Translations under genes and position numbers: made by a program
Shown here: piece after piece, positions 1,074 through 57,274 of the stretch
Layout of the letters: every line of letters begins with the position of its first letter
Numbering within the stretch: position 1 is the first letter of the stretch
Assembly: GCA_964359755.1 (NCBI GenBank)
Contig: CAYHUB010000002.1
Location: 924 to 64,923, forward strand
DNA length: 64,000 nucleotides
Reading direction: 5' to 3'
From: an uncultured Candidatus Saccharibacteria bacterium
GTDB taxonomy: Bacteria; Patescibacteriota; Minisyncoccia; GWC2-36-17; WO2-46-25
The notes under the pieces: model-generated
Databases searched by the model: none
Told to the model about the DNA's origin: nothing
Seen by the model: the letters and a program-made list of their open reading frames with translations, nothing else

Positions 1074-1123
1074 TCAAGCGTATTTTCTTGATAGTTTCTG
1101 CATTTTCGAGTACTATTTCCTGT

Positions 1124-11423: not shown

Positions 11424-12008
11424 ATGGCTACATCACCGAAATATAAGATATGCGTGTCGGGCGCCGCGGAATCAACCCATTGCGGAGCAAGCGTACTTGC
11501 GCTTGCAGAAGAGATCGGGAGGGAGATCGTGCGGCAAGGCGCGGTGCTGGTGACTGGCGCGACATCGGGCGTGCCGTATTGGGCGGCAAAAGGAGCAAAG
11601 GCGGAGGGAGGGATATCGATCGGCGTATCGCCGGCGGCTTCCGAGCTCGCGCATGTGAAGGCATATAAATTGCCGATCGATTACTTCGACCTTATTATTT
11701 ATACGGGGTTTGATTATTCAGGAAGAAACCTGCTTTTGACGCGCGCGGCGGACGCGGTGATCACCATTTGCGGGCGCATGGGCACGTTAAATGAATTTAC
11801 GATCGCGTTTGAAGACCGCAAGCCGCAGGGGGTGCTTATCGGCACCGGAGGCACCGCGGATTATTTAAAGAGCATCATTGAAAAAATGCATCGCGGTCCC
11901 GGGAAAGTGGTATATCATAAGGATCCCAAGAGGCTTATCGCGGAAGTGATCAAGCTCATCAATAAGGACCAAAAAATGAAAACAGAGCCGTCAAAACGGA
12001 GAAGCTAA
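11424..12008 (+). CDS. LOG/TIGR00725-family Rossmann-fold nucleotide-binding protein
   Basis: ICGRMGTLNEFT resembles the LOG-family GGxGTxxE motif. 194 aa. Confidence 0.45.
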   Translation: MATSPKYKICVSGAAESTHCGASVLALAEEIGREIVRQGAVLVTGATSGVPYWAAKGAKAEGGISIGVSPAASELAHVKAYKLPIDYFDLIIYTGFDYSGRNLLLTRAADAVITICGRMGTLNEFTIAFEDRKPQGVLIGTGGTADYLKSIIEKMHRGPGKVVYHKDPKRLIAEVIKLINKDQKMKTEPSKRRS

Positions 12009-20824: not shown

Positions 20825-22264
20825 TTAGAGAATATTTGCTGCCAATTCGGCGAGCGCGGAGCGCTCGCTTCGCATCATCATGATGTGGCCGGAGCAAACG
20901 TATTGTTTGAACCGGTGAATAGCGATTGATAATCCATTATTATGAATGTTGAGATACGGACTATCGATCTGGTTTATATCGCCGGTCAAAACTATCTTTG
21001 TTCCCTCGCCGGCCCTCGTGATGATTGTTCGTATCTCGTGGCCGGTGAGATTTTGCGCCTCGTCAATTATGAAAAATTGATGAGGCAAACTTCTTCCTCT
21101 GATGTAGGTCAGCGGTTCAACATACAAAACCCCGTCATCGATGAACTTCTGCCACGGAGGTTTTGGTCTGCCGTTTGTTTCGGCGGACTTATGTCTGGTC
21201 GAGTCGCCTTCATTCACCTTCCTTTTTTGCTTCCTCTCCTTTCTGGTCGGCTCCGAGACATCCTCTTTTGGTCTCTCGGCGCATATTTTTTTCCAGCCAG
21301 AAAATAATATATCCAGATTGTCGAATATCGGCTGCATCCAGGGATTGAGCTTTTCATTGATATCTCCCGGAAGAAAGCCGATATCTTCGCCCATTGGTTT
21401 TATCGGACGGGCGACGGATATTCTTGAATACATTTTTCTTTGCTGTTGTTCAAATGCGGCGGCTAACGCGAGCAGCGTTTTGCCTGTTCCCGCTTTGCCG
21501 GTGAGTGTGACGAGCGTGATGTCCGGATCGAGCAGGAGCTCAAGAGCAAGTCTTTGCTCGGCGTTCTTTGGCTTGATGCTGAAGACCGCTTGAGATGGCA
21601 CGACATTGACGGGTAATCGTATCAAAACATCATCTTTGCAGATTGTCTCCACGCGATCATTTCTGTCGTTTTTAATGATCACGAACTCATTGGGCATTAT
21701 TTCAAGATCTTCGGGGAGGGGAGCTTTTCCCGATCTTTTGGCAATAGTGAAAATGCCATTTTTGTCCCTTATCTCTTGAAATCCTGCATAGAGACCGACT
21801 TTGTCATTTCGGTATTCTTCCGCCCGTATTCCGTAAGCCGACGCCTTGTTCAAAAGATTGATATCGTTAGTGACAAGGATAACGGGAAGATTTCCGCTTT
21901 GCGGCGTCTGTTGCCACTTCAAAGCGACAGCCAAAATGTGATGGTCCGGCTTGTCCGCGTGGTTTTTCAACGGCGACAAAGAATGAATATCGTCCTCGGT
22001 GTCTATGAAGAGCGTTCCGCCGCTTTCTAACGTGACACCGTTTTTGAAATCTCCGCCATTGCGGACTTTATTCAGATACCGGGAAACTTGGCGGCTGTTG
22101 GCGCCAAGCTCATCCAATCCCTTTTTGAAGTTGTCGAGCTCATCAAGGGCGGTAAACGGGATGACAAGATAGTTGTCTTTCAGATTCAACAATACTTCCG
22201 GATCATGCAGGAATATGTTCGTGTCGATGATATAGATCTTTTTCGGGACATTTTTTTCCGACAT
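20825..22264 (-). CDS. PIN-domain PhoH-like ATPase (PhoH2/YlaK-like)
   Basis: N-terminal PIN (IYIIDTNIFLHD...TALDELD), then Walker A LTGKAGTGKT and PhoH-type C-terminus. I placed the start at MSEKNV (22264), which has AAAGGAGGCGGCT upstream. The track ORF extends to 22417 with a Lys-rich leader. Confidence 0.75.
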   Translation of the reverse strand: MSEKNVPKKIYIIDTNIFLHDPEVLLNLKDNYLVIPFTALDELDNFKKGLDELGANSRQVSRYLNKVRNGGDFKNGVTLESGGTLFIDTEDDIHSLSPLKNHADKPDHHILAVALKWQQTPQSGNLPVILVTNDINLLNKASAYGIRAEEYRNDKVGLYAGFQEIRDKNGIFTIAKRSGKAPLPEDLEIMPNEFVIIKNDRNDRVETICKDDVLIRLPVNVVPSQAVFSIKPKNAEQRLALELLLDPDITLVTLTGKAGTGKTLLALAAAFEQQQRKMYSRISVARPIKPMGEDIGFLPGDINEKLNPWMQPIFDNLDILFSGWKKICAERPKEDVSEPTRKERKQKRKVNEGDSTRHKSAETNGRPKPPWQKFIDDGVLYVEPLTYIRGRSLPHQFFIIDEAQNLTGHEIRTIITRAGEGTKIVLTGDINQIDSPYLNIHNNGLSIAIHRFKQYVCSGHIMMMRSERSALAELAANIL

Positions 22265-22503
22265 AGCCGCCTCCTTTTTTTCCGGCTTGTCTTTTTTGAT
22301 GCGGAGAGTTTTTTGATGAAAAGGCCGACTCTCCACGTTTTTTTGCAACCTCTTCTTTTCCTCTCCCGCAGTCAGCATCATTCCGCGATTTCTTGACGTG
22401 CCTTGGTCTCTCAGCATTTTGTGCCTCCTTGTATATGAATTTTTTAAGGTCCTGAATATGAGTTTCTTATATCACTATTTACCGGCGATGACAATAGCGA
22501 AAA

Positions 22504-32161: not shown

Positions 32162-33556
32162 ATGATACGCGAATTCAAAAACAAAAAAGTGGTGATCATG
32201 GGGCTCGGGAGCTACGCACAGGGGAGCGGTTTTGCCGCCGCCGCTTTTTTTGCCAAGGCGGGATCAAGGGTGCTTGTCACCGATATGAAGCCCGCTTCTT
32301 TTTTCGCATCTGCGATAACAAAGCTCAAGAAATATCCCCATGTGCGCATGGTGTTTGGAAAACACCGTGAGCAGGATTTTATACAAGCGGACCTTATTAT
32401 TAAAAATCCGGATGTGCCCAAGAGTTCTCCGTATCTTCGCGTCGCGAAAGAATACGGCGTGCCGGTGTGGGATGACTGGACCGTGTTTTTGGCGATAAGC
32501 GACGCTATGATCGTCGGGGTGACCGGCTCAAAAGGGAAAAGCACCACGGCGGTGCTTATCAATGAGATGGTACGCCGGCAGTACCGCTCGCATCTGTGCG
32601 GTAATATCGGCGTGTCGCCGCTTGCGATATGGCAAAAGATACACAATGACGATGTGGTGGTGGCGGAACTTTCAAGCTTTGGCCTGCACGGGTTTGAGAC
32701 GTCGCGCATCAGCCCTCATGTCGCGGTGATCACCAATCTGTTTCCCGAGCATCTCAATAAATATAAAAATATCGGGGAGTATTATAAGGATAAAGAAATA
32801 ATTTTCAGATATCAGAAGAGCGATGATTGGTGCATTGCCAATAGAGATAATGCGGAAACCAAAAAACGCGTCGCACAAGCGAAGTCAACCGTGCTGTGGT
32901 TTTCAAAAAAACCGTTTCGCGGTGATGGCGCGTACATAAAAGATACATCAATTTTCTTTTCGCAGGGAACTGAAAAAACGCGCATATGCGCGGTTTCGGA
33001 TATTCAGCTTCTCGGCGCGCATAATCTCGAAAATGTTCTGGCGGCCGTCTGCGTTGCGATGTGTATGGGCGTGCCACCGAATGCCATACAAAAAACAATC
33101 AAAGAATTTCGCGGGGTTCCGGGGCGCATGGAATTGGTGAGGACGGTGAGGGGAGTTGCGTATTACAATGACACGACGGCAACCATGCCCGAAGCGGCGA
33201 TCGCGGCGCTTGATGTGCTCGCGCACAAGAATGTGATACTGCTTGCGGGCGGCGCCGATAAGAAGCTCAATTACCGCGAGCTTGCGCGCGCGATCAAAAA
33301 GCGCGCACCAAAGCTTGTGCTGTTTAAGGGTGCCGCGACGGAAAAACTTATGCAGGAGCTTGAGAAAATAAAGTACCATAAAATACTCGGCATCGTTACC
33401 GGTATGAAAGACGCGCTCTCCATCGCGCGCGCCGAGGCAAAAAGAGGAGATGTGGTGCTGTTGTCGCCGGGAGCGGCGAGCTTCGGCATTTTTAAGAACG
33501 AATTTGACCGCGGCGATCAATTTTGCGCGCTGGTGAGGAAACTTCCCTCACACTAA
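32162..33556 (+). CDS. murD: UDP-N-acetylmuramoylalanine--D-glutamate ligase
   Basis: N-terminal Rossmann VVIMGLGSYAQG, P-loop GVTGSKGKSTT and MurD-type C-terminal domain. 464 aa. Confidence 0.85.
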   Translation: MIREFKNKKVVIMGLGSYAQGSGFAAAAFFAKAGSRVLVTDMKPASFFASAITKLKKYPHVRMVFGKHREQDFIQADLIIKNPDVPKSSPYLRVAKEYGVPVWDDWTVFLAISDAMIVGVTGSKGKSTTAVLINEMVRRQYRSHLCGNIGVSPLAIWQKIHNDDVVVAELSSFGLHGFETSRISPHVAVITNLFPEHLNKYKNIGEYYKDKEIIFRYQKSDDWCIANRDNAETKKRVAQAKSTVLWFSKKPFRGDGAYIKDTSIFFSQGTEKTRICAVSDIQLLGAHNLENVLAAVCVAMCMGVPPNAIQKTIKEFRGVPGRMELVRTVRGVAYYNDTTATMPEAAIAALDVLAHKNVILLAGGADKKLNYRELARAIKKRAPKLVLFKGAATEKLMQELEKIKYHKILGIVTGMKDALSIARAEAKRGDVVLLSPGAASFGIFKNEFDRGDQFCALVRKLPSH

Positions 33557-35151
33557 AGCGATTTCACCATATAGGTGTCTTTGAGCGTATAGCCGAGTTT
33601 ACCGTAGTAGCCGCGCACGCCAGCACCCGCGATCACTGCCATTTTTTTCATCCCGAACTCTTTTTTTGCGATGTTTTCCGCTTCCGCGAGCAGTTTTTTT
33701 CCGAGTCCTTTATGTTGTTTTCCCCGTGAATGATTTTTTTGCCTGAGCAGAGGTACCACTTCGCCATACGTATGTATCTCGCGTATGAGCGCGGCGCCTT
33801 CGAGCGCGCCGAAAAGCGGCCGCGTGTCTGAAGGAGAGATACGGAGACGGAGGAGCGCGATAAGCTTATCGTTTTTAACGTCTTCGTAAGACAGGAAAAT
33901 TTCCTTGCCGCCCGAAGCATCATAATCCGTTCGCTTTAATTTTACATCGCGCGCTTGTGCGACGGTGTCTTTGATCTCTCTGCACCTGATACAGCGGCAC
34001 GCTATTCCTTGTTCCGCCATTTTTTTGTGAATGACCTGGCGCAGATTTGAAGCGGTGCTTCCCGCTGCGATGCTCGGCGCGGGAATATCGCGGATCACCC
34101 GCACGATACGGCAGTATTCCGGCACATATTGTTTTGCTCTGGTGATAATAGAAATAAGCTGGCGGTCGGTGTACGGGCGGTATAAGCCTTTTTGCCACAT
34201 GCGGTACAGTTTTGTATTTTTAACAACCATGCATGGATAGATCTTGAGCATATCGGGTTGAAAACGCGGGTCGGTAAAAAGCTTTTTGAACATCGCGACA
34301 TCTTTCGCGGGAGTAGAGCCCGGGAGGTTGGGCATCATATGATAATTGATCTTAAACCCCGCATTTTTGAGCAAGGCGGTCGCGTGCGCAACCGCATCGA
34401 TATGATGGCCGCGCTGGGAAATATCAAGAACGTCGTCATACACGCTTTGCACGCCAAGCTCCACGCGCGTGCAACCATAGTGGCGCATGCGTTTTATTTC
34501 GTCTTCGTTCACCCAATCGGGCCGTGTTTCAAGCGTAAGCCCGACGAGCTTATGCGTAGCGTGTCTGCGGTTGTATTCCTGGAGTGACGCAAGCGATGAT
34601 TTTGTTTTTTTGCCCCCGGAATTTTTTTCGTTCAATGCTTCATACAGCCGCGCGATGAATTGTTCTTGGAAGCGGTGGGGGATGGACGACCACGTCCCGC
34701 CGATGACGATAATTTCGATCTTGTCGGTCGCGTGCCCCTGCGCTTTAAGCGCCGCAAGACGGCTGGCGACCTGCCGGTAGGGGTCGAACTCGTTGGCGAT
34801 CGCGCGCATGACCGCGGGCTCGTTGGACAGATAGCTTTTGGGCATGCCGCGCTCGGTTGGGCAAAAGACGCATGCGCCCGGGCACGCGCCGTTGGGTGTC
34901 ATGACGGTGATTGCGGCAATACCCGAAAGCGTCCGCACTTTTCTTTTTACGATGATGCGCGCGAGCGGGGGATTCGGTTTGATTTTTTTTGCGTCGAGGA
35001 GTTTTCCGTATGCGGCAAAAAGCGCAATGTTTGATGCGAGGCCTTCGGTGCCGCCCGCGGCGTGCGCGCGTCTGATCGCCTCGAATGAGGCCTCATCGAG
35101 ATTTTTTTTACGAGACGCCTCAACGATTATTTTTTCAGCTGTTGTTGGCAT
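33553..35151 (-). CDS. elp3: ELP3-family radical-SAM/GNAT tRNA wobble-uridine modification enzyme
   Basis: GIAAITVMTPNGACPGACVFCPTERG radical-SAM cluster motif of the ELP3 type, plus a C-terminal GNAT region (KHKGLGKKLLAEAENIAKKEFG). 532 aa. Confidence 0.8.
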   Translation of the reverse strand: MPTTAEKIIVEASRKKNLDEASFEAIRRAHAAGGTEGLASNIALFAAYGKLLDAKKIKPNPPLARIIVKRKVRTLSGIAAITVMTPNGACPGACVFCPTERGMPKSYLSNEPAVMRAIANEFDPYRQVASRLAALKAQGHATDKIEIIVIGGTWSSIPHRFQEQFIARLYEALNEKNSGGKKTKSSLASLQEYNRRHATHKLVGLTLETRPDWVNEDEIKRMRHYGCTRVELGVQSVYDDVLDISQRGHHIDAVAHATALLKNAGFKINYHMMPNLPGSTPAKDVAMFKKLFTDPRFQPDMLKIYPCMVVKNTKLYRMWQKGLYRPYTDRQLISIITRAKQYVPEYCRIVRVIRDIPAPSIAAGSTASNLRQVIHKKMAEQGIACRCIRCREIKDTVAQARDVKLKRTDYDASGGKEIFLSYEDVKNDKLIALLRLRISPSDTRPLFGALEGAALIREIHTYGEVVPLLRQKNHSRGKQHKGLGKKLLAEAENIAKKEFGMKKMAVIAGAGVRGYYGKLGYTLKDTYMVKSL

Positions 35152-35177
35152 TTTAGGATTGATGATACGATGAAAGC

Positions 35178-35900
35178 ATGCACAAGCAGTATGCCAACTA
35201 TCTCATAGAAAAGACAAGAGCGGACTATGACCGCATCGCGTCTGATTTTGACCGGACGCGCGGGTATGTATGGAAAGAGCTGGAGCGGTTTGGAGAATAT
35301 ACGCGGGAAGGACAGAGGGTACTCGACTTCGGATGCGGGAACGGCCGCCTTTTTGAACTGTTCAAAGGAAAGAATATCGCGTATACGGGCATTGATCAGT
35401 CGGGAGGGCTGATTGCACATGCGCGTACGCGGCATGCGAAGGATATCGCGCAAGGAACCGCGCAGTTTATTGAAGCATCGGGCGACACCCTTCCATTTCC
35501 GGACGCATCGTTTGACTGCGTGTTTTCGATTGCCGCGCTTCATCATATTCCTTCTGAAGAAAAGAGAAAAGAATTGCTTCGTGAGTTTGCGCGCGTGATG
35601 AAGCCGGAGGGGCGGCTCATAATCACCGTGTGGAATTTATGGCAGAAAGGGTATCGCGGACTGATCGTGCGCGCAACGCTTAAAAAAATCATCGGGCGGT
35701 CGCAGCTTGATTTTTTTGATGTATTCGTGCCTTGGAAAGACAGCACAGGAGATGTGCAGGCACAGCGATACTATCATTGTTTTTCCTTGTTTTCGCTAAA
35801 ACGGCTTGTACGCCGCGCGGGGTTCCTGCTTTATGAGAGCGGGTATTTTGCGGTGAAAAAGGACAGGGTCAATATTTACGTAATCGCCGCAAAAGAGTAG
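35178..35900 (+). CDS. Class I SAM-dependent methyltransferase (type 11; Trm9-like by context)
   Basis: VLDFGCGNGRLFELF motif I and MKPEGRLIITVWN motif. Divergently arranged with elp3. Confidence 0.65.
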   Translation: MHKQYANYLIEKTRADYDRIASDFDRTRGYVWKELERFGEYTREGQRVLDFGCGNGRLFELFKGKNIAYTGIDQSGGLIAHARTRHAKDIAQGTAQFIEASGDTLPFPDASFDCVFSIAALHHIPSEEKRKELLREFARVMKPEGRLIITVWNLWQKGYRGLIVRATLKKIIGRSQLDFFDVFVPWKDSTGDVQAQRYYHCFSLFSLKRLVRRAGFLLYESGYFAVKKDRVNIYVIAAKE

Positions 35901-35915
35901 GATACGAATAATAGT

Positions 35916-36950
35916 ATGACAGCGCCTTCAAGAAATTCTATTGATATCACGTTTGCGTCCATTATGAAGGTGGCGGCCGTTGTGCTTGGGCTGGCGCTCA
36001 TGTATTCCGTAAAAGAGATCCTCGCCTTAGTGTTTCTCGCGATCATTATCGCATCCACTGTTGACCGGTGGGCGAGCTTTTTTGAGCGATACCACATCCC
36101 CCGCATGGGAGGCGTGGCGCTGGTGTATGTTGGGTTTGTCGCGCTTCTTGTCGCAGTGCTGTATTTTATTGTCCCGCCAATCCTTACGGAGGTGAAGCAG
36201 TTGGTGCTCTTTCTTCCTGATTATTATGATGTTGCGGCAAAACAGATCTTTCGTACTACGCGCGGCATTTCGCCCGATTACGCGCGAAGCATGCAGGAAT
36301 TCGCTACGGGGCTTGAAGCGCGCATTACCGGTGTAACGTCGGGCGCATTGTCCGCCGCCGTGGATGTGTTTGGCGGGGTGGTGGCGTTTGGCATGGTGAT
36401 CGTGACCTCGTTTTATCTCGCGATGCAACGCCGAGGCGTTGAGCATTTTTTACGGCTCGTGACGCCCAAAGCGCAGGAGGAATATGTTCTTGACGTGTGG
36501 CGGCGCGTGGAAATAAAGCTGGGGAAATGGCTCGAAGGCCAGCTTCTGCTCGGATGTATCGTGGGAGTCACCGTGTTTGTCGGGCTTTCACTGATCGGCG
36601 TGCCGTATGCACTGCTGCTTGCGCTTGTTGCGGGGATCTTTGAGATCATTCCGATCGCAGGACCGCTGTTTTCCGCGCTCGTCGGCGTTTCTGTTGCGTT
36701 CCTTGTTTCGCCGGTACTCGCGTTTCTTACGCTTCTTTTTTACGGCGCCCTGCAGCAGATCGAGAATCATGTTCTGGTCCCGTTATTTTTAAAAAAGATC
36801 ACAGGGCTTAATCCGGTGGTGGTCATCGTCGCACTGCTTGTCGGCGCAAAGCTCGGCGGCATCATGGGCATGCTTATTGCGGTGCCGCTTGCAACGATAG
36901 GAGGCGAGCTATTGGATGATCTTGCGAAGAAAAAAGCGGGATCAGTATAA
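35916..36950 (+). CDS. AI-2E family (UPF0118/PerM-like) transporter
   Basis: 344 aa with 7-8 TM segments. Conserved central region GKWLEGQLLLGCIVGV...IPIAGPLFSALVGV. Confidence 0.7.
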   Translation: MTAPSRNSIDITFASIMKVAAVVLGLALMYSVKEILALVFLAIIIASTVDRWASFFERYHIPRMGGVALVYVGFVALLVAVLYFIVPPILTEVKQLVLFLPDYYDVAAKQIFRTTRGISPDYARSMQEFATGLEARITGVTSGALSAAVDVFGGVVAFGMVIVTSFYLAMQRRGVEHFLRLVTPKAQEEYVLDVWRRVEIKLGKWLEGQLLLGCIVGVTVFVGLSLIGVPYALLLALVAGIFEIIPIAGPLFSALVGVSVAFLVSPVLAFLTLLFYGALQQIENHVLVPLFLKKITGLNPVVVIVALLVGAKLGGIMGMLIAVPLATIGGELLDDLAKKKAGSV

Positions 36951-37391
36951 GAGCAGGAAAAGAGAAGCGGCAACGACAAAGATTTCGGTCATAGCGCCAA
37001 GCCATAACGGCGGGCGGGTTCCTATGGGCGTAATGAGTGCGTGCCAGAAGGCATGAAACTGCATGTGGCGGCGAAGATATTTCCCGCGTGAAAATAAATA
37101 GATCGCCAAAAGACCGTCGGGGACAATGCCGAAAAACGCACCCCACACAATAAGCGCTTGTTCTGCGGAGTCAAAACGCTGGAGCGTAAAAAAGATAATG
37201 AAAAGCCCCGCGGCGATATCGGCCGTGATCTTGTATGCGGTTGCTTTTTTTGATGTCATGATGGCATACTCCCAGTGGGGAAGCGCATCAAGGAGATAGT
37301 GGAGTGCGACAGCGCCAAGCGCAAGAAGAACCGGTTGATGGAGAGAGGTTGCCAGCGCGGCACCCGCGAGCATATGGGGAGCAAGGATCAT
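36942..37391 (-). CDS. Hypothetical membrane protein
   Basis: 149 aa with 4 predicted TM helices and no recognisable motif. Confidence 0.4.
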   Translation of the reverse strand: MILAPHMLAGAALATSLHQPVLLALGAVALHYLLDALPHWEYAIMTSKKATAYKITADIAAGLFIIFFTLQRFDSAEQALIVWGAFFGIVPDGLLAIYLFSRGKYLRRHMQFHAFWHALITPIGTRPPLWLGAMTEIFVVAASLFLLLY

Positions 37392-37406
37392 AATTCAGAA
37401 TACATC

Positions 37407-38087
37407 ATGTCACATTTATTTATCGTAGCGACGCCGATAGGGAATTTGGAAGATATTTCTTTCCGCGCTGTGCGGATATTGCAGGAGGCTGATCTGATCC
37501 TCTGCGAAGATACGCGCGTGACAAAAAAACTGCTTGATCGGTATGCCATCAAAAAACCGCTTCAATCATATCATCAACACAGTAAGCTGGCAAAGACAGA
37601 ATACATCGTAGATATGCTTGCCTCGGGGAAAAACATGGCATTGGTTTCCGATGCGGGAACGCCGGGAATATCCGACCCGGGAGGGTTGCTTGTTGAAGCA
37701 GTCGTTAAACGATTGGGAGACGAAGTAACGATCGTTCCGATTCCCGGGGCGAATGCCGCGCTCGCCGCGCTCTCCGTGTCAGGGTTTCCCACGGACCGGT
37801 TTATATTTTTAGGATTTCCGCCGCATAAAAAAGGAAGGAAAACATTTTTTGAAGAAGTAGCGGCTCTACGCGAAACCGCGGTGTTGTACGAATCAAAACA
37901 CAGAATAGAAAAGGCGCTTACCGCGCTCGCCGAGCATGCGAAGGAGAGGAACATCGTGGTTGCGCGAGAACTCACCAAACAATTTGAAACGCTCTATCGC
38001 GGCACCCCGGGGGAGTGTCTTGCCGCGCTGAAAGCCGACGACATGCGCGGCGAATTTGTCGTAGTAATTGCACCAGTAAAAGCATGA
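37407..38087 (+). CDS. rsmI: 16S rRNA (cytidine1402-2'-O)-methyltransferase RsmI
   Basis: LFIVATPIGNLEDISFRAVRILQEADLILCEDTR is typical of RsmI (tetrapyrrole-methylase fold). Start set at MSHLF (37407), which avoids overlap with the upstream antisense gene. Confidence 0.8.
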   Translation: MSHLFIVATPIGNLEDISFRAVRILQEADLILCEDTRVTKKLLDRYAIKKPLQSYHQHSKLAKTEYIVDMLASGKNMALVSDAGTPGISDPGGLLVEAVVKRLGDEVTIVPIPGANAALAALSVSGFPTDRFIFLGFPPHKKGRKTFFEEVAALRETAVLYESKHRIEKALTALAEHAKERNIVVARELTKQFETLYRGTPGECLAALKADDMRGEFVVVIAPVKA

Positions 38088-41286: not shown

Positions 41287-41709
41287 CTAATAGCAGGTGA
41301 TTTTATTCCACGGCATTTTACCTCCGGATGTATTAAAAAATGTTCCTGCAAGGGAGGTGAGGATCGTATCAATGATGATCCATGCGCCAAAGACGATCAG
41401 AAGACCAATAATGGTGTTTCTGATTATTTTTATCCCTTCCTGACGCGCGCCCGGCGACCCGCCCGAGGTGAGTATTTTGAATCCCGCGATCGCAAAGGCA
41501 AGGACTGCAAGCGAAGGAGCGATAATCGTGGTAAGCTCAGTGGCAATGGTCTCTCCAAGTGTGAAAAGATGACAGAGAGAGCACGGTTTCTTTTGCTCAG
41601 CTGTTGCATCAGCCCCGGTTCGTCCGCATGGAACAAGACCGGCGGCAAGCGCAACGAGCGGAACCGCTATCATAAAAAGCGCCCCTACAATAAGTAATTT
41701 TTTCCACAT
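41287..41709 (-). CDS. Secreted pilin-like protein with C-terminal two-helix hydrophobic domain (distant paralogue of the 56.6-59.6 kb array)
   Basis: Sec signal MWKKLLIVGALFMIAVPLVALA, a Cys-containing segment, then AIAGFKILTSGGSPGARQEGIKIIRNTIIGLLIVFGAWIII. This has the same AG...G...AR...IIG topology as the array proteins. Confidence 0.5.
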   Translation of the reverse strand: MWKKLLIVGALFMIAVPLVALAAGLVPCGRTGADATAEQKKPCSLCHLFTLGETIATELTTIIAPSLAVLAFAIAGFKILTSGGSPGARQEGIKIIRNTIIGLLIVFGAWIIIDTILTSLAGTFFNTSGGKMPWNKITCY

Positions 41710-42904: not shown

Positions 42905-45382
42905 ATGGCAGAAGAAGAACAAAAATTCTCTATAGGAAACGTTGAGCCGCGCGAGATCGTCGACGAAATGAAAGAGTCGTATCTTGATTATGCGATGTCC
43001 GTTATTGTCATGCGCGCCCTGCCCGATGTCCGGGACGGAAGCAAGCCGGTGCACCGGAGGATCTTGTACGCGATGTCCGAGCTCGGCCTTCGGCACAACG
43101 TGAAATTTTTAAAGTGCGCGCGCATCGTCGGCGATGTGCTCGGTAAATATCATCCGCACGGGGATATGGCGGTGTATGATGCGCTTGCGCGCATGGCGCA
43201 GGATTTTTCGCTGAGGTATCCGCTGGTGGACGGGCAGGGGAACTTCGGCTCGGTGGACGGCGATTCTCCCGCGGCAATGCGGTACACCGAAGCGCGCATG
43301 ACCGCGGTCGCGGAAGAAATGCTGTTTGATATCGAAAAAGAAACCGTTGATTTTGTCGACAACTATGACGGTACGCGCAAAGAGCCGAAGGTGCTTCCCG
43401 CGCGCGTGCCCCAACTGTTGCTCAACGGACAGACGGGTATTGCGGTGGGTATGGCGACAAACATCCCTCCTCATAATCTCGGCGAGCTGGTGGATGCCAC
43501 CATACACCTCATCGACCACCCGAAAGCGGATGTCACCGCGCTGCTTGAATTCGTAAAAGGACCGGACTTTCCGACAGGCGGCATCGTGTACAATCAGGAC
43601 GATATCGTGACGGTGTACAGCACCGGCAGGGGGCCTCTTACCGTGCGCGGGAAAGCGGAGATCGCGGAAACAAAAAGCGGGCACCATCAGATCATTATCA
43701 GCGAGATACCGTTTCAGGTGAACAAATCGTCGCTTATCGAGAAAATGGCCGACCTCGTTCGTGAAAAAACGATCGAAGGCATCAGAGATATCCGCGACGA
43801 ATCGGACAAAGACGGCCTGCGCATCGCCATTGATCTCAAAAACGACGCGTTCCCGCAAAAGATACTCAACAAGCTCTATAAGCTTACCGATCTTCAAAAG
43901 GCGTTCCACTGCAATATCCTCGCGCTCGTGGACGGCATTCAGCCGACCGTACTGTCGCTGAAGGCCGTACTTGAGTATTTTATCGCGCATCGCAGAGAGG
44001 TGGTGGAGCGCAGAACGCGCTATGACCTCGGAAAGGCAAAAGACCGCGCGCATATCCTCGAAGGGCTGAAAAAGGCGCTTGACCATATCGACCGGATCAT
44101 CGCGACCATTAAAAAGTCAGCATCAAAAGAAGACGCGCATGTGAGCCTGGTGCGCGTATTTGCGCTCACCGAAATTCAGGCAACCGCGATCTTGGAAATG
44201 AAATTGCAGACGCTCGCCGGGCTTGAGCGCAAAAAGATCGAAGACGAGCTCGAAGAAAAGAAAAAACTCATCGCATATCTGAGCGGCCTCTTGAAAGACC
44301 CCAAAAAGATCCTCGGCGTGGTGAAAAAAGAACTTGAAGAGATCAAAGAGAAATACGCGGACGTGAGGCGCACGAAGATCATAAAAGGAAAAGTGTCCGA
44401 GTTTAAAGAAGAAGATCTTATCCCCGATGAAGAGACCATGATCGCGCTATCGTACGGCGGATATATCAAGCGCGTGAATCCCGCGATGTACCGCACCCAG
44501 CGAAGAGGCGGAAAGGGGATCATCGGCATGGAAACAAAAGAGGAAGATGTCGTGGAGCATCTGCTCTCGACGAACGCGCACGCGAACATTTTATTCTTTA
44601 CGAACAGAGGAAAAGTTTTCCAGACGAAAGTATACGAAGTGCCCGAAGCATCGCGCGTATCAAAAGGAAAAGCGATCGCGAATATCCTCGATATCCAGCA
44701 GCAAGACACCGTGACCGCGCTGGTGCCGCTCAAAGAGATGTTGGGTAAAAAAGGGAAAGGCGACGCCGCAAGCGATATCCACTTAATCATGGCGACGAAA
44801 AATGGTATCATTAAGAAAGTGAAAGCGTCTGAATTTATCACCGTGCGGAGCACCGGCGTGCAGGCTATCACGCTTAAGGGAAGTGATATGCTCAAATGGG
44901 TGCGCATATCGCATGGCGGCGACGAGATCATTCTCCTTACCAAAAACGGCAAGGCGATCCGGTTTCATGAAAAGAACGTGCGCGCCATGGGAAGAACTGC
45001 CGGCGGCGTGCGCGCTATTACGCTCAAAGGAGGGGATGAAGTCGTGGGCGTCGACGTGATCCCTGCGGGGAGAGCAAGCGAATTTGAACTGCTTGTCATC
45101 TCGGAGAATGGGCTCGGGAAAAAGACAGCGCTTGACGAATATCGCGCGCAAGGCCGCGGAGGACAGGGGATCAAAACGTACAATGTCAGTGAAAAAACAG
45201 GAAAGCTCGTGGCATCATTGCTCATTTCACAAGAAGAGGAAGACCTTATCGCAATTTCCAAGAAAGGGCAAGTGATACGGACCCAGCTTGTGTCGATACC
45301 GGCGCTTGCGCGGGCAACGCAGGGAGTGCGGGTGATGCGGCTTGCGACAGGAGATCGGGTGGCATCCATCGTGTGTTTATAA
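42905..45382 (+). CDS. gyrA: DNA gyrase subunit A
   Basis: N-terminus [36 protein letters not shown], a QRDR-like region, and C-terminal beta-pinwheel repeats. 825 aa. Confidence 0.95.
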
Positions 45383-45411
45383 CGCAAAAGGCGGAGAGCG
45401 AAAAACGAAAT

Positions 45412-45963
45412 ATGTCTTCTGTAACCCATCACAGCGTAAAATTTCTCAATCCTTCGTTCGTGCTTGCGCAATCGGGCATCGGCGAAGGAATGCAGGTTGC
45501 CGATTTTGGCTGCGGCCAGGGAGATTTCGCGCTTGCCGCCGCAAAGCTTGTCGGACCGGAGGGAAAAGTATGCGCGATCGACATTCAGGATTCCGCGCTC
45601 AGCTCAACGAGATCAAAAGCGCGCATCGGGGGATTGCTGAACATCGTTCTTGTGAAAGGAAACGTGGAAGTTTCAGGAGCGAGCGGCTGCGCCGACGGGT
45701 CTCAAGATGCGGTCCTTCTGACCAATCTTTTATTTCAAACGGAGAAACGCGCCGAGGTTTTACATGAAGCAATGCGGGCGTTGAAGCCGGGCGGCATCGC
45801 GATATTCGTGGATTGGGAGAAAGAAGCGCCACTTGGACCCATGCGCAATTTACGCATGGAAAAAGAAGCAATAGAAAAACTTATTATACAGGAAGGATTC
45901 GTGTTTAAAAAAGAAATCGAAGCAGGCGCATTTCATTTTGGAATGTTGTTTACAAAGAAGTAG
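45412..45963 (+). CDS. Class I SAM-dependent methyltransferase
   Basis: VADFGCGQGDFA motif I and LKPGGIAIFVDW. The track ORF starts at 45373, overlapping the gyrA end. Confidence 0.6.
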   Translation: MSSVTHHSVKFLNPSFVLAQSGIGEGMQVADFGCGQGDFALAAAKLVGPEGKVCAIDIQDSALSSTRSKARIGGLLNIVLVKGNVEVSGASGCADGSQDAVLLTNLLFQTEKRAEVLHEAMRALKPGGIAIFVDWEKEAPLGPMRNLRMEKEAIEKLIIQEGFVFKKEIEAGAFHFGMLFTKK

Positions 45964-47278: not shown

Positions 47279-49969
47279 ATGGAAAAACTTTTTTCGTACC
47301 GTATATATTACTTCTTGTTCGCACTAGCCGGACTTTTTCTGTTTTGCGGAGCGCACTATGCGTACGCGTATATGGCGCCGATAGATTGTGCAGGACCGTA
47401 TCTTCTCGGGCAGAAGTACGATGCATCTCCGCCCCCAACCCCTAAAAACGGTCAATTTGCCTGTGCTATCGGGACGGCAACCGGTGATACGCCGGTACCC
47501 TCGATTCCCTCGGGAAACTTCTATCGCTGCGAGGAAACCATGGCGAACCAGTTGTATTGCCGACATTATATAAATCCGACCACTGATTATTATACCTGTA
47601 CGTATTATGGAACCGGAGCTCATGTCGGAAGCGATTTTTTTCAGAGAATAATATTTGACAATTGCACCTACTCGGTTATTCCACCGACTATTTCGTTTAC
47701 CGCCCCTTCTTCTATTAATTTAGGCCAGTCCGCAACGCTTTCATGGAATGTGACAAACGCGGCAACCTGCACCGCGACGGGAGGGTGGTCCGGTGCCAAA
47801 GCTCTTCCTTCCGGCTCAGAAACGGTAACACCCACCACCACGACGACCTATACGCTATCGTGCACGGGATCAACCACCTTAAGCCAATCGCGCACCGTCA
47901 CGGTCAACATCCCTGACACCACCCCTCCAACCAGCCCGACCAATCTCGCCGCGTTTGCGGTTGCTACGTCCCAGATAAACCTCACCTGGACTGCGTCCAC
48001 CGACACGGGCGGGTCGGGGCTTGCGGGGTATCGTATTGAACGGTGCATGGGAGTGGGGTGCGCGAGTTTTGCCGAAATCGCCACTTCTCCTATTGCAAGT
48101 TACAGTAACATCGGTCTTGCGCCATCCACGAGTTACAGCTATCGCGCGCGCGCGTATGACGGCGCAGGAAATACCAGCGGATATTCCAATATCGACTCCG
48201 ACACCACGCCCGCGCCGGCCGACACCACGCCCCCTTCCGCGCCATCGCTTAGCGGTGTCGTATTTTCTCCCACGCAGATCGATCTTTCTTGGACCGCATC
48301 CACCGACAACGTTGGCGTTACGGGGTATCGCGTGTATCGCAACACCACGCTCATATATACGGCAGGGAGCGCTACAACGATATATTCAGATATGGGCCTC
48401 ATACCTTCCACTTCGTATAGTTATTACGTGTCGGCGTATGATAGCGCGGGAAACGCCACGCAATCTAACACGGTAACTATCGCGACGCCCGCAATACCCG
48501 ACACCACGCCGCCGGTATTTATATTCAATTCTCCCGGCTCGACGCTTCTTGCGGGTACGACGTCTGCGACGCTCGGAGGGACTACGAATGAAAACGCAAC
48601 ATGCCGATATAATGAAAACACCGACACCACGTTTGACTTGATGACGCCATTTAGCACCACGGGAACGACAAGCCATACTAAACTAATCCCGCAACTACCC
48701 TTACAACTGACCGACGGCACCGTGTATTATTATTATGTAAAATGTCGCGATACGGCGCCTATTCCCAATACTAATCCAGTAGGTATTCCGTATATGTTTC
48801 AGGTTGATTCCCCATTGCCCGACACGACGCCTCCTATCATTTCAAACGGATCGCCCTCAGGCGTGCTTGCCGCAGGTACCACATCAGTAACGATGAGCGT
48901 GGTCACCGATGACGATGCGTATTGCCGATATAATCAAGACAGCGATACTACGTTTGACCTTATGACAAATAATTTCACCAGTTCCGATCTTAAAAACCAT
49001 ACGGTACCGCTTATAGGCCTTACCAACGGCTCATCGTATTTGTATTACGTGAGGTGCCAGAACACGCCGGGAGGGTATGCGAACACGAGCGGCTATCCTA
49101 TCTCGTTTGTCATTGCGTTTCCCGCAAACATGAATCCGATGGCATTGATCGTCATAACGCCATCGACATCGGGCACCGCGCCGTTTGCGATATCCGCCAA
49201 CGGAAGCGGAAGCTACGATTCAGACGGAAGTATTGCGCAATATACGTGGAGTTGGGGGGACGGCTCGCCAAACGCGACCGGCGTTGGGTCGTCGCATACC
49301 TACGCCACCGCGGGTACCTACGCACTTTCGCTTAAGGTGGTTGATAATCAAGGCGGCAGCAACACCGCCTACGAGACGATCGCGGTTTCTGCGGCGACCG
49401 TGCTTCCCCCTCCGAGTTCAGTGAATGTGTGCACCGCCGAATGTACGCATACCTCCGACTGCATAGCTCTTTACGGTTCCTCCTCTATCTGCGGTCCTTC
49501 GAAGTTTTGCACCGCGCAAGGGGGCGGCGAGGGCCCGTTCCGTTCTGATTTTTACCTCTCGCGCACCGACGGCTCCATGAGCCAGCAATCGCCCGCCACA
49601 TTCCCCGCGGGAACCGCTTCTGTTATCATGAGCATGAAAACAGACGTGAACGCGGAGTGCCAATATTCGACAGTCAGCAACACGCTCTATGATGCAAGCG
49701 CGATGAAAACATTTACAAGCACCGGCACACTCGATCATTCGGTCACGCTGACCGGCCTCGCAAGTATGACCGCGTCAGCGCACACATACTATGTCCGCTG
49801 CCGCGATCTTGAGAGCGGTATCGTGAATGACACCGATCAAGCCATATCGTTTATTACGGGTGCGCCGATTATTGTGTCGGGTCCGGACCCTTACATGTGC
49901 CTCATTAATGCTGATTTTGTCCGCGACAACATTCCGTATGTGTTTGATATTTGCATGCCGAAACCATGA
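47279..49969 (+). CDS. Large secreted surface protein with FN3, PKD and novel Cys-bracketed repeats (896 aa)
   Basis: Signal peptide; two FN3-like modules (INLTWTASTDTGGSGLAGYRIERC, IDLSWTASTDNVGVTGYRVYRN); three to four repeats of the CRY...TTFDLM...GTTSH...YYYV.C type; a PKD-like module (YTWSWGDGSP...GTYALSLKVVDNQGGSN). Confidence 0.7.
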   Translation: MEKLFSYRIYYFLFALAGLFLFCGAHYAYAYMAPIDCAGPYLLGQKYDASPPPTPKNGQFACAIGTATGDTPVPSIPSGNFYRCEETMANQLYCRHYINPTTDYYTCTYYGTGAHVGSDFFQRIIFDNCTYSVIPPTISFTAPSSINLGQSATLSWNVTNAATCTATGGWSGAKALPSGSETVTPTTTTTYTLSCTGSTTLSQSRTVTVNIPDTTPPTSPTNLAAFAVATSQINLTWTASTDTGGSGLAGYRIERCMGVGCASFAEIATSPIASYSNIGLAPSTSYSYRARAYDGAGNTSGYSNIDSDTTPAPADTTPPSAPSLSGVVFSPTQIDLSWTASTDNVGVTGYRVYRNTTLIYTAGSATTIYSDMGLIPSTSYSYYVSAYDSAGNATQSNTVTIATPAIPDTTPPVFIFNSPGSTLLAGTTSATLGGTTNENATCRYNENTDTTFDLMTPFSTTGTTSHTKLIPQLPLQLTDGTVYYYYVKCRDTAPIPNTNPVGIPYMFQVDSPLPDTTPPIISNGSPSGVLAAGTTSVTMSVVTDDDAYCRYNQDSDTTFDLMTNNFTSSDLKNHTVPLIGLTNGSSYLYYVRCQNTPGGYANTSGYPISFVIAFPANMNPMALIVITPSTSGTAPFAISANGSGSYDSDGSIAQYTWSWGDGSPNATGVGSSHTYATAGTYALSLKVVDNQGGSNTAYETIAVSAATVLPPPSSVNVCTAECTHTSDCIALYGSSSICGPSKFCTAQGGGEGPFRSDFYLSRTDGSMSQQSPATFPAGTASVIMSMKTDVNAECQYSTVSNTLYDASAMKTFTSTGTLDHSVTLTGLASMTASAHTYYVRCRDLESGIVNDTDQAISFITGAPIIVSGPDPYMCLINADFVRDNIPYVFDICMPKP

Positions 49970-52900
49970 AATTTGAAACCTGGAAAACAAAAATAAAAAA
50001 TAAAAAAATACGCATCGCGCTCGCGAGCATGTTTTTGGTCGCCGCAGGCGCGGCACTCGGCGCGATGCCGTTCTATGCGCACGCGAGCACGGTGTTTATT
50101 CCTTTTCCAATTGATGTTGCCAGTTCTAGTACTGCCGGCGTCACCGCATGGACGACATATGCAAATACAGGCGGAGCTATCCCTGCGAGCGCAACCGGCG
50201 TTATTTTGGAAGCTTACGGAAGGATGTGTTGTGTCGATGGTGCCGGTGGGGACGTAGACGGACGTATTAAAATTCGCAAAGATAGCACGTCTTCCGAGTA
50301 CGTGCTTTTACGCGGGAGAGCATCTTCCGGAGGCGACAATGTTGCATGGGTAAATCAAGGGGTGTTTCCTGTCAGTTCAACCGGCACATTTCAATACGCC
50401 GTAGAAAGTCCGGGACTTGACTCGGGATGGAGGATAAAGATAATAGGGTATACCACCGACATTGTATTTGTAGCTCCCGTTCTCATTGGTAGCGGTAGCG
50501 GCACCGATGCCATTTCATGGACAGCATACAACAACGATGGCGGGGTTATTCCTCCCAGCGCAACCGGCGTTATTTTGGAAGCTGAGGCAGCGATGTGTTG
50601 CACTGATGGGGGAGGGGACGTGGATGCGCACATCGTGATTCGCAAAGACGGTACGTCTCCCCAATACGTGCTTTTACGAGGAAGAGCATCTGGCGGAGGC
50701 GACGGTGCCGCTTGGGCAACTCAAGGAGTGTTTCCTGTCAGCTCAGGGGGGGAATTTCAATACGCCATAGAGGCTCCGGGATTTGATGGCTGGCTTGGAC
50801 TTGATGGCGTTACATGGAAGATAAAGATAGTGGGGTATACCACCGACCGCAGATTTATTGCCCCAACCGAAGTCGCCAGCTATACACCATCGTGGTATTC
50901 CATAAGCGGCTCCAATGAGGGTACCGCTCTTCCTGGCTGGACCACCTATACTGATCCAAATGATATCATCCCCTCTAATGCAACCGCTGTTATTTTGCAA
51001 GCGGAAGGAGGGATGGACGGACCAGATGGTGCTATTGATGTGGATGGATATATATTAATCCGTAAAAATAGCTCATCCATGAATCTCACGCTTTTACGCG
51101 GGATATCGTCTTCCGACGGCGACGATATCGCATGGGCAAATCAAGGAGTGTTTCCTCTTAGCCCAACAGGCACATTTGATTACATGGTATTTGCTCCGGG
51201 ATTTCACCACGGATGGAAGCTAAAAATAGTGGGGTATGTCGCCAGCGCGACTCTTCCGTCTATCTGCCCAAACTTCGGTCTTGAACGCACGACGACCTAC
51301 GACCTGCAAAATGAAGCGTACGCGACCGGATATGGCGTTGCCGTGGACAGCAGTAATAATACATACATCACCGGAGATCAATACGCGCCTGCGACGGCAA
51401 GCATGGATATGTATGTCATCAAATACGACCAAGCCGGCAATGTGGTATGGTCTGCCGTATATGATAATGCGGGGGGCAATGAATCGGGATATGGCATCGC
51501 GGTAACGCCAAACGGAAGCGCCGTATATGTGGTGGGAAGCCAGAACGAAAAAGCATTTATACGCAAGTATGATTCAGCCGGATCTTTGGTAACATCATTC
51601 GGTTCCGGCGGGACAGTGGTATATGAATATGGCGCCCAGACCGTCGCGCGCGCGGTCGCGCTTGATACCGCGGGGAATGTGTATGTAGCGGGACATCGGG
51701 GAAAAGCATCAGGGTCGGGCATTGACGCGGTATTGCTGTCATACAATTCTTCCGGATCGCTCCTTTCAGGGTTCCCGGTGATCTACAGCGCTACATATAA
51801 TTCATCCGCGCTCGGCGTTACGGTGTCGGGTTCTTCCGTGTATATGACGGGGTATGTTCAAGTGTCTTCCACAGATACCGATATGTTTGTGGGGAAATAT
51901 ACCACAAGCGGCGCGCTGTCGTGGTCTAAAACGTATCAGAATACAATATCAATCACTATTTTTGGCACAACGATTACCTTACCTGATGAGAATGAAACCG
52001 AAACAGGATATGGCGTGAGCGTGGATGGCAGCGGAAATGTGTTTGTAACGGGATACACCAGCGAAAATGGAGGGCATACCTTTTTGAGAAAATATGATTC
52101 ATCGGGAGCGCTTGCGTGGGGCGAGGTGCGCAACTCCGCCGGCGTTCCCAATGACATGGGGAGGGGGGTGGTAGTCGGAAATTCTGGGAGGATATTTGTA
52201 ACAGGGCGCCAGCAAACAAACAATGAGGACGCGTTTTTGGCGGAATATTATACGGATCAAACGACCCTTGTTACCTACCCTGATTTTTCAAAGGGACCGC
52301 TAAGTTTATGCGCAAACGGTAAAATCGCTTTTGTATATGAAAGAAATGGATCAAGGGCGCGCGTGTATCTTACGACTTTTCCCACAGGCAGTAGTGACAC
52401 TACTACTTGGGTGGGGTTTGGATGCACGGGCGGTGATCCCGGGCATTGGGCCGAAGCCGCCGGCAAAAGAATGTTCTATGATTTTGATTGGAATGATGTC
52501 CCTGCGGAAATAACCGAATTTACCGCGATAGTAGACACCAATGATTCAAATGTAGGCACCAAGGACTGGAAGGGATCGGCGACGTTTTTAAGAAGCGATG
52601 CGGACAAAACGGTTATGGGCGGTGAGTGTTACTGTAGCACTACGTGGGGTACTCCACTCTCTCCTCTCACCATGGATATTCACTGGCACAGCGTGCTTAA
52701 AGGGTTGACTCCCACTACCCTCCCTTATCAAGGCGATAAGGGAGGTATGACGGAGTATAACGAAATGGCGCATGGCATTGCGCAGACCAACTCAACCGTT
52801 TCGGGACACACTACTACTTCTAATGACGTATATGTCGTTGGGTATCAGGCATCTAATGGCGGTTCGGCATTTCTCAATAAATACAGTTGTAATGCGTTAT

Positions 52901-56583: not shown

Positions 56584-56618
56584 TTGAAACGTGAAACGTG
56601 AAACGTGGAACATGAAAC
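56584..56618 (+). promoter_or_regulatory. Five tandem heptamers (TTGAAAC GTGAAAC GTGAAAC GTGGAAC ATGAAAC) at the start of the pilin-like array
   Basis: Read directly from the sequence. The array spans the 31-nt gap after the giant gene stop and reaches the first pilin-like gene's start codon. Confidence 0.4.
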
Positions 56619-57274
56619 ATAGAATTCAAAATTCAAGCGCTGTTTTTTTTGTATGTGCCACAGTCGCGCTGGCGTTTCTTTTTCCGTTGGCTACCGGGGT
56701 GTATGCGGAACCATTTACTCCGGGCCCAACCGGAACGCCTAGTCCCATATTCGAACCTCCCACCGGAGCCACATCGTTTTCCGCTATTGTGTGCAAAGTA
56801 ATCGAGTTTTTTTCCGCAACAATCCTTCCGCCGCTTGCGGTACTGATGATGCTGGTGGTAGGATTTTTGTTCATGATAGGCGGCCAGATGCCTCAGAAAG
56901 CGATTGCCGCGCGAAAAACGCTGTTATACGTTGTCGCGGGAGTGGTATTGCTGTTGCTTGCCCCGGGGATCCTTGGGGTGATTGTTGATATCACAGGAGC
57001 ATCATCTGCATCCTTTACCGCGTGCTCCACGTCAATAACGACCGCGAGCATCATAGCAACGATCGCAGGACTCGTTAATTGGTTCGCGTGGTTCGTTTCT
57101 ATCACCTCCGTCGCGATGGGCCTGTACGCCGGCGCGCTCTACCTCACCGCGCGTGGCGATTCAGCGCAGGTGCTCAAAGCGACAAAAGTGTTTTCCTTTA
57201 CCATTATCGGCATCGCGGTCGCGGTCGTTTCGTTCAGCATTATCGTGCTGACAAAAACGTTCTTCGGGATATAG
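56612..57274 (+). CDS. Secreted protein with two tandem pilin-like two-helix domains
   Basis: Signal peptide ...ATGVYA/EPF. First domain ILPPLAVLMMLVVGFLFMIGGQMPQKAIAARKTLLYVVAGVVLLLL. Second domain VNWFAWFVSITSVAMGLYAGALYLTARGDSAQVLKATKVFSFTIIGIAVAVVSFSII. ATG at 56612; the track uses GTG at 56591. Confidence 0.6.
   Translation: MKHRIQNSSAVFFVCATVALAFLFPLATGVYAEPFTPGPTGTPSPIFEPPTGATSFSAIVCKVIEFFSATILPPLAVLMMLVVGFLFMIGGQMPQKAIAARKTLLYVVAGVVLLLLAPGILGVIVDITGASSASFTACSTSITTASIIATIAGLVNWFAWFVSITSVAMGLYAGALYLTARGDSAQVLKATKVFSFTIIGIAVAVVSFSIIVLTKTFFGI

Follow-up and report, generated by a model that had tools for sequence, protein, structure and literature searches.

A gene pair consisting of an ELP3 homologue and a Trm9-type class I S-adenosylmethionine (SAM)-dependent methyltransferase is found in the 64-kb stretch of DNA analysed here (contig CAYHUB010000002.1), the whole of which is referred to as the window. 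The ELP3 gene (33553-35151, minus strand) encodes a 532-aa protein with radical-SAM and GNAT/KAT domains. On the evidence of TIGR01211, Pfam and Protein Data Bank (PDB) matches the product is a predicted synthase of 5-carboxymethyluridine at wobble position 34 of tRNA (cm5U34). The methyltransferase gene (35178-35900, plus strand) encodes a 240-aa protein. This is a predicted tRNA (carboxymethyluridine34-5-O)-methyltransferase, as indicated by PDB matches, hhalign, a fungal Trm9 hidden Markov model (HMM), and AF2/Foldseek. Both open reading frames (ORFs) have exactly the limits and the strands reported in the initial annotation of this DNA. The two genes are divergently transcribed, and their start codons are separated by an intergenic spacer of only 26 bp (35152-35177). 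Any promoters must therefore sit within the coding sequence of the partner gene. No sigma-70-like site was found within the 26-bp spacer by a promoter scan, and the counts obtained by scanning the junction were not above those of shuffled sequence.

The DNA of the window is bacterial, its products including MurD and a second Mur ligase, FemAB, GyrA, UvrB, RuvA, RecO, the delta subunit of DNA polymerase III, ThiI and several aminoacyl-tRNA synthetases. No Rfam family was detected at gathering threshold in the 64 kb. The nearest relatives of both members of the pair are found in metagenome-assembled genomes of 'Candidatus Azambacteria' and other Patescibacteria, or candidate phyla radiation (CPR). 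The methyltransferase is 74-80% identical to proteins named by NCBI from Patescibacteria/Azambacteria, and the ELP3 protein is 81-87% identical to those encoded at two related loci (L001 and L007).

Judged by its sequence, the product of 33553-35151 is an unambiguous Elp3. The TIGR01211 model (NCBIfam ELP3) is matched from position 41 to 522 of 522 with 571.8 bits (cutoff 350, E = 1.2e-171), and the Pfam domains Radical_SAM, Radical_SAM_C and Acetyltransf_1 (residues 478-521) are all recognized. Among solved relatives the archaeal MinElp3 scores best (6iaz, 439 bits), followed by DmcElp3 (5l7j, 415 bits) and yeast Elp3 (376 bits); yeast, mouse and human structures all score about 375 bits. The motif VMTPNGACPGACVFCP spans residues 83-98 (window 34858-34905), and includes the radical-SAM [4Fe-4S] tract CPGACVFC (34861-34884, minus strand), in which C90, C94 and C97 are spaced CX3CX2C; the tract has been assigned by its position and aligns to the cluster motif of MinElp3. 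Also present are the zinc-binding CRCIRC motif of bacterial and archaeal Elp3 (residues 385-390, 33982-33999, minus strand), assigned by position, and a GGTW motif. The acetyl-CoA binding motif QHKGLG of the GNAT/KAT domain (residues 479-484, 33700-33717, minus strand) has been assigned by its position and by the Pfam Acetyltransf_1 match. The radical-SAM motif and the C-terminal GNAT region described in the initial annotation are therefore both confirmed. Alignments to PDB entries begin at query residues 63-69, and delimit an N-terminal extension of 62 residues (34966-35151, minus strand). The N-terminus is basic, 11 of its first 68 residues being K or R, and DmcElp3 can be aligned only from residue 69 onwards. 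A long basic N-terminus plays an important part in the recognition of the tRNA substrate by MinElp3, and this region is short in DmcElp3 (Lin 2019, PMC6367351).

Early descriptions of Elp3 made it a histone acetyltransferase, a name that persists in PDB entries. One may accordingly ask whether the homologue described here is no tRNA enzyme at all, but perhaps acetylates protein lysines or performs some other radical-SAM function, and whether the pair plays a different joint role. This is most improbable. Bacterial, archaeal and eukaryotic Elp3 hydrolyse acetyl-CoA in response to tRNA, and histone or tubulin peptides do not elicit this activity (PMC6367351). All the motifs of the tRNA-modifying enzymes, and the basic N-terminal extension, are present in the window protein, and the conserved partner is itself the orthologue of a tRNA U34 methyltransferase, as detailed below.

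Curated libraries assign the methyltransferase in generic terms. Only generic Pfam families are matched (Methyltransf_11/25/23), and no NCBIfam model scores above its cutoff; sub-threshold NCBIfam matches are CpaM (69.8 bits, cutoff 180), UbiE (56.9 bits, cutoff 158), DVU_1556 and BioC. The NCBIfam result is uninformative rather than negative, because the models are built for naming bacterial and archaeal proteins, and none of the matches is Trm9-specific. A few relatives carry the JGI/KEGG-derived labels 'TRM9' or 'alkB family protein 8', and the NCBI name is 'class I SAM-dependent methyltransferase'. The SAM-binding motif I DFGCGNGR (residues 50-57, 35325-35348, plus strand) is found within the tract LDFGCGNGR (residues 49-57), and all family members share D50, G52, C53 and G54. 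In the initial annotation this motif was the argument for a Trm9-like enzyme. The argument is weak, the motif alone being a generic class I feature; the identity that it was meant to support is upheld on other grounds, namely hhalign, HMM and residue comparisons. Generic or sub-threshold assignments, the generic name of the relatives and a motif I that is not Trm9-specific would all suit an unrelated class I methyltransferase of the UbiE, BioC or small-molecule type, lying beside ELP3 by chance.

The comparisons that follow speak for Trm9. The top PDB match of the single sequence is Yarrowia lipolytica Trm9 in the Trm9-Trm112 complex (5cm2_Z, E = 6.9e-16, residues 27-224), and this is the only alignment that passes beyond the Rossmann core, to residue 224. 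The same entry ranks first when the PDB is searched with a family profile of 48 sequences (85.5 bits), and the match, which spans profile positions 25-233 of 235, includes the C-terminal DNWWVVAK. Fungal Trm9 sequences were collected using the Yarrowia sequence. The family profile aligns by hhalign to 28 full-length fungal Trm9 sequences over 209 columns (probability 100%, E = 1.6e-40, 31% profile identity), and the Trm9-specific N- and C-terminal elements that lie outside the Rossmann core are covered by this full-length match. The search space for the HMM derived from 112 fungal Trm9 sequences consisted of the 5,987 ORFs of 60 aa or more that are encoded by the window and 80 related loci. 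Exactly 66 ORFs were matched, at 60-112 bits, and all are ELP3-linked methyltransferases, one in the window (92.8 bits) and 65 in related loci. The window hosts a second class I SAM methyltransferase (45373-45963, plus strand), a UbiE-like protein of 196 aa located directly after gyrA and matching Methyltransf_31/25/11. This protein, which is not matched by the fungal Trm9 HMM, is an internal negative control. The AF2 model of the 240-aa protein has a pLDDT of 95.5. In Foldseek searches 5cm2_Z ranks second (E = 2.7e-17, target-normalised TM-score 0.82), with 26% identity, the highest among the 50 matches listed, though the class I fold alone is not discriminating for Trm9. Clustering with unrelated small-molecule methyltransferases, an outcome considered in the initial annotation, was not observed, Yarrowia Trm9 being the best solved relative and the HMM being specific. 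On these sequence comparisons, 35178-35900 is a Trm9 orthologue. Fused versions of the protein ('Rosetta stone' evidence) were looked for in an exhaustive profile search, which gave 1,495 clusters at 50% identity (E <= 1e-30). None was found among the best 150 clusters, the members of which are all stand-alone proteins of 190-335 aa.

Residues important for the function of Trm9 are conserved. R29, D72, H116, W145, W168, R241, Y243 and N271 of yeast Trm9 (ScTrm9) are needed for activity, as established by alanine mutagenesis (Letoquart et al. 2015, PMC4678810), and H115 and Y18 have been modelled at the cm5U site (PMC4678810). The equivalent residues of the window protein, identified by hhalign, are all identical (Y17, R28, D73, H122, H123, W152, W186, R197, Y199 and N232), and six of them, Y17, R28, D73, H123, W152 and R197, are invariant in all the 66 ELP3-linked homologues. 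Plus-strand coordinates are given for each. The N-terminal signature Y17-x10-R28 (YDRIASDFDRTR, 35226-35261) corresponds to Y18 and R29 of ScTrm9; R29 is required for activity, and has been proposed to bind the carboxylate of cm5U (PMC4678810). D73 (35394-35396) corresponds to D72, the SAM-binding acidic residue, and SAM binding is abolished in the D72A mutant (PMC4678810). The pair H122-H123 (35541-35546) corresponds to H115-H116, of which H116 is essential and H115 has been modelled as contacting O4 of U34 (PMC4678810); H122 is found in 59 of the 66 homologues. W152 (35631-35633) corresponds to W145, which is essential and proposed to stack on U34. W186, in the tract VPW (35733-35735), corresponds to W168, which is also essential, and the position is always aromatic (27 W, 39 F). 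The tract R197-Y198-Y199-H200 (35766-35777) corresponds to R241-Y242-Y243-H, in which both R241 and Y243 are needed. At position 199 the window protein has Y, as do 16 family members overall, and 37 have H. N232 (35871-35873) corresponds to N271, required and modelled as reading O2/N3 of U34, and is N in 58 homologues.

ELP3 was searched for in one genome per GTDB species. The scan detected 198 relatives, and the best 80, corresponding to 77 bacterial and 3 archaeal loci, have been analysed. The bacterial loci are from Azambacteria, Moraniibacteriota, Portnoybacteria, Paceibacterota and similar groups. The statement of the initial annotation that ELP3 is sporadic in bacteria does not apply to this lineage, since the gene is widespread in Patescibacteria. 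Of the 77 bacterial loci, 65 have a full-length homologue of the methyltransferase no more than 2.6 kb away from ELP3. The two genes are arranged head-to-head in 57 of these; the start-to-start gap has a median of about 77 bp and ranges from -10 to 2601 bp, and is at most 400 bp in 52. In eight loci (L014, L016, L017, L019, L023, L041, L059 and L077) the methyltransferase gene is downstream and convergent, at 120-2531 bp from ELP3. These loci make up a Paceibacterota/Moraniibacteriota subgroup, in which the Asn equivalent to N271 is replaced by Glu within the C-terminus ...NGEEMVLEME. ELP3 is found without the methyltransferase, despite at least 1 kb of flanking DNA on both sides, in five loci (L009, L028, L035, L053 and L073), and 7 of the 77 could not be assessed on one side. 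None of the three archaeal ELP3 loci (L076, L079 and L080) has a linked methyltransferase.

The association is also found starting from the other gene. When metagenomes were scanned from the methyltransferase alignment, ELP3 proved to be the neighbour in 34 of the 37 assessable loci at 36% identity or more, and in 14 of 33 loci of more distant relatives. The co-occurrence of the two genes in related genomes, which had been suggested as a check on the proposed pathway, holds therefore in both directions. Methyltransferase genes lacking ELP3 in spite of adequate flanks were found at L098, L104 and L106. Several of the distant matches lacking ELP3 come from contigs of 19-23% GC, and their scores with the fungal Trm9 HMM are 121-133 bits. 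These are probably eukaryotic Trm9 genes, so that Trm9 proper would be the nearest out-group of the family in sequence space.

Other genes of the neighbourhood do not travel with the pair. Those found close to it in the window, among which ThiI, MurD, an AI-2E transporter, RsmI, methionyl-tRNA synthetase and cyclophilin, are each shared by just 1-17 of the 77 loci, and chance adjacency or general synteny was rejected on this ground. A third conserved pathway gene, such as a thiolase or MnmA/Ncs6, was not found beside ELP3 by clustering the neighbouring ORFs, the next real family occurring in at most 21 of 78 loci. The largest such family is a 536-aa ORF (21 loci). It is followed by an ORF of about 349 aa, found within 10 kb in about 20 loci (for example L020, 13863-14909), the N-terminus of which may be RlmN-like.

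The possibility that a generic methyltransferase came to lie beside ELP3 by chance is effectively refuted by linkage and reciprocity, and retains a very small probability. The pair recurs far more often than the other neighbours do, ELP3 flanks nearly all the close relatives of the methyltransferase, the Trm9 HMM picks the ELP3-linked gene and skips the methyltransferase at 45373-45963, and the profile match reaches the Trm9-specific termini beyond the Rossmann core. Pairwise distances of the ELP3 and methyltransferase proteins correlate over 65 pairs (r = 0.82; Mantel test, 0 of 2000), as would those of any two genes passed on vertically. The eight convergent loci cluster as one group in both distance matrices, which fits the notion that the pair may have been inherited as a unit, with a single rearrangement.

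Trm112 is the partner needed by eukaryotic Trm9 (PMC4678810) and by Haloferax Trm9 (PMC6144793). No ORF carrying the Trm112/DUF343 motif was detected in the window, or within 10 kb on either side of the 80 ELP3 loci, by a motif scan of a kind that misses divergent Trm112. Similarly, no small zinc-knuckle ORF was found among the small intergenic ORFs of the window, and no conserved small gene emerged from clustering the neighbours of the ELP3 loci. The residues V59, F78, V102, V103 and F116, which form the Trm112-docking patch of Yarrowia Trm9, have been compared in 66 CPR proteins and 112 fungal Trm9 sequences. The V59 equivalent is R, K, N or Q in the CPR family, the F78 equivalent N, E, K or D, and the V103 equivalent mostly K. 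Hydrophobic residues account for 3%, 20% and 32%, respectively, at these positions, against 96-100% in fungi; at the V102 equivalent they account for 59%, against 94% in fungi. F116 and D117 are retained. The polar nature of the patch argues for a Trm112-independent variant, and not against a Trm9-like chemistry. Since no Trm112 gene was found nearby and the docking patch is mostly polar, the window methyltransferase is probably a stand-alone, Trm112-independent Trm9, which would be either autonomous or served by some other partner.

The gene pair is thus best read, with good though not full confidence, as a two-step wobble-uridine pathway of the archaeal/eukaryotic type in an Azambacteria-like Patescibacteria bacterium, with Elp3 producing cm5U34 and the Trm9-type methyltransferase converting it to 5-methoxycarbonylmethyluridine (mcm5U34). 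Elp3 would work alone, without Elp1/2/4/5/6; MinElp3 alone makes cm5U in vitro (PMC7663514). Its [4Fe-4S]/SAM radical domain, with acetyl-CoA bound to the GNAT domain, would add a carboxymethyl group to C5 of U34. The carboxylate of cm5U34 would be subsequently methyl-esterified by the Trm9-type enzyme at the expense of SAM. Both the chemistry in the host organism and the choice of the tRNAs to be modified are what we infer from the pair. A complete U34 pathway had been suggested in the initial annotation. The cm5U and mcm5U steps are indeed encoded, and the word 'complete' was an overstatement, as neither Trm112 nor a 2-thiolation gene was seen.

Several observations weigh against this interpretation. 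When the PDB is searched with the family profile, Trm9 scores just 10 bits or so above generic methyltransferases (85.5 versus 75.3 for both 3sm3 and 1ve3), and 3sm3, an uncharacterised protein, ranks slightly above Trm9 in Foldseek, although the signature residues HH, W and R are missing from 3sm3 in the family-profile PDB alignment. The family has drifted at positions required in ScTrm9, the W168 equivalent being F in 39 of 66 members, the Y243 equivalent H in 37, and the N271 equivalent E in the eight convergent loci. The Trm112 motif is missing around the ELP3 loci, within the limits of the scan, and the hydrophobic patch to which Trm112 docks is not conserved. The correlated distances of the two proteins are of a generic kind. 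No tRNA gene is found in the 64-kb window, and hence no substrate tRNA is indicated.

Some of these data could be accommodated by assuming that the methyltransferase is coupled to Elp3 and catalyses another reaction. It could act on a different side chain derived from Elp3, on another position of the anticodon loop of the same tRNAs, or on Elp3 itself. Tight linkage indicates functional coupling, and does not tell which reaction is involved; the equivalents of W168 and Y243 differ from fungal Trm9 in most members, and that of N271 in one subgroup; profile identity to Trm9 is only 31%; and the in vivo product of bacterial Elp3 is undocumented (PMC7663514). Against this stands the fact that the residues proposed to hold the carboxylate and the uracil, corresponding to R29, H115/H116, R241 and W145, are invariant or nearly so in the 66 homologues, as would hardly be expected with another substrate, and that the window protein retains all the residues of the cm5U site, including W, Y and N. 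We regard a different reaction as unlikely, though less so than the other alternatives considered, and methyl-esterification of cm5U34 remains the preferred assignment.

Other features of the window deserve mention. A 1201-aa class I aminoacyl-tRNA synthetase of the Ile/Val/Leu type is encoded at 1088-4693 (plus strand; tRNA-synt_1, Anticodon_1, DUF5915). Its architecture is unusual, as a His_Phos_1 domain (92.7 bits) is inserted at residues 523-688, inside the catalytic-domain match. An SLOG cluster-4 family protein is encoded at 11424-12008 (plus strand), and a 530-aa PIN-PhoH fusion at 20825-22417 (minus strand). An ORF of 149 aa with no Pfam match (36942-37391, minus strand) overlaps the predicted GTG start of the RsmI-like TP_methylase gene (37275-38087, plus strand). 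The Pfam domain of the latter begins at residue 48, and translation of this gene therefore probably starts from an internal Met near 37400. A cluster of small T4SS-pilin/TrbC-like proteins, which carry signal peptides, is encoded at 41287-41709 (minus strand) and at 56591-57274, 57841-58218, 58366-58743 and 59255-59641 (plus strand). ORFs 57841-58218 and 58366-58743 encode identical 125-aa proteins, and represent a perfect tandem duplication at the protein level. Two PKD/fibronectin-III proteins of 896 and 2209 aa (47279-49969 and 49951-56580, plus strand) are encoded between a solute-binding protein and the pilin cluster.

The function assigned to the pair is in itself known chemistry, performed by recognisable orthologues. 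The novelty lies in the host group, in the almost universal head-to-head coupling found there, and in the likely loss of the requirement for Trm112. Specialist reviews have called bacterial Elp3 'a rare example' (PMC6367351), or have limited it to Dehalococcoides, species for which direct evidence of xcm5U34 derivatives is lacking (PMC7663514). A 2026 paper mentions Elp3 in 'numerous bacteria', giving no detail, and a 2026 preprint on CPR methyltransferases mentions neither Trm9 nor Elp3. Full-text literature searches retrieved nothing relevant linking Elp3 to CPR, Patescibacteria or Parcubacteria. The frequency of Elp3 among Patescibacteria, where it nearly always faces a Trm9 orthologue head-to-head, predicts the occurrence of mcm5U in a very large uncultivated radiation. 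The finding bears also on the origin of the Elp3 pathway, which may be ancestral or may have been exchanged between CPR bacteria and archaea.

A broader and more tentative idea, which we consider possible rather than probable, is that mcm5U is the standard C5 modification of wobble uridines in a large part of the CPR (Parcubacteria-type Patescibacteria), being made by stand-alone Elp3 and a Trm112-independent Trm9 in place of MnmE/MnmG. Neither mnmE nor mnmG is found in the 64-kb window, and literature searches on the status of MnmE/MnmG in CPR gave nothing relevant. If true, mcm5U would for the first time be recognised as a regular tRNA modification of bacteria, and a naturally autonomous Trm9 would be without precedent. 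Eukaryotic Trm9 depends on Trm112 for both solubility and activity. The compact CPR proteins of 230-250 aa may be soluble, autonomous versions of Trm9, suited to structural work with tRNA, because their surface at the Trm112-docking site appears to be polar.

The window pair can be compared to several known systems. Yarrowia and yeast Trm9 share with the window methyltransferase the motifs Y...F..TR, HH, VW..Q, VPW and RYYH and the C-terminal N. Judging from the AF2 model, they would also share the class I fold and the extra beta-hairpin lid seen in the Trm9-Trm112 structure (5CM2). Yeast Trm9 is likewise placed downstream of Elp3. In contrast, the window enzyme is bacterial, is about 26-31% identical to the fungal proteins, and lacks the long insertion found in these before the RYYH strand. 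The methyltransferase domain of human ALKBH8, which works with TRMT112, differs in that no fusion to AlkB or RRM domains is found in the best 150 clusters of the window family. MnmE/MnmG, together with MnmC, act on C5 of the same wobble uridine and serve the same decoding purpose, but are unrelated enzymes with an unrelated chemistry (GTP, FAD, methylene-tetrahydrofolate, glycine), and their products are 5-carboxymethylaminomethyluridine (cmnm5U) and 5-methylaminomethyluridine (mnm5U).

The Dehalococcoides mccartyi DmcElp3 (5L7J, 415 bits), which serves as the reference for bacterial Elp3, is likewise a stand-alone protein, in which the radical-SAM and KAT domains are accompanied by the zinc motif CxCxxC. 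It has a significantly shorter N-terminus, a lower affinity for tRNA and very weak activity (PMC6367351, PMC7663514), whereas the window ELP3 has about 62 additional residues at the N-terminus, and its best-scoring structure is the archaeal MinElp3. Archaeal systems are similarly organized, as both Haloferax volcanii (HVO_1032-Trm112) and Sulfolobus solfataricus combine a stand-alone Elp3, without Elp1/2/4-6, with a Trm9 orthologue. The presence of mcm5U34 has been documented in Haloferax (PMC7663514). In S. solfataricus the Elp3 and Trm9 genes are clustered, and Trm9 is limited to a subset of archaea (PMC2584109). The pair is in contrast the rule across the Patescibacteria loci.

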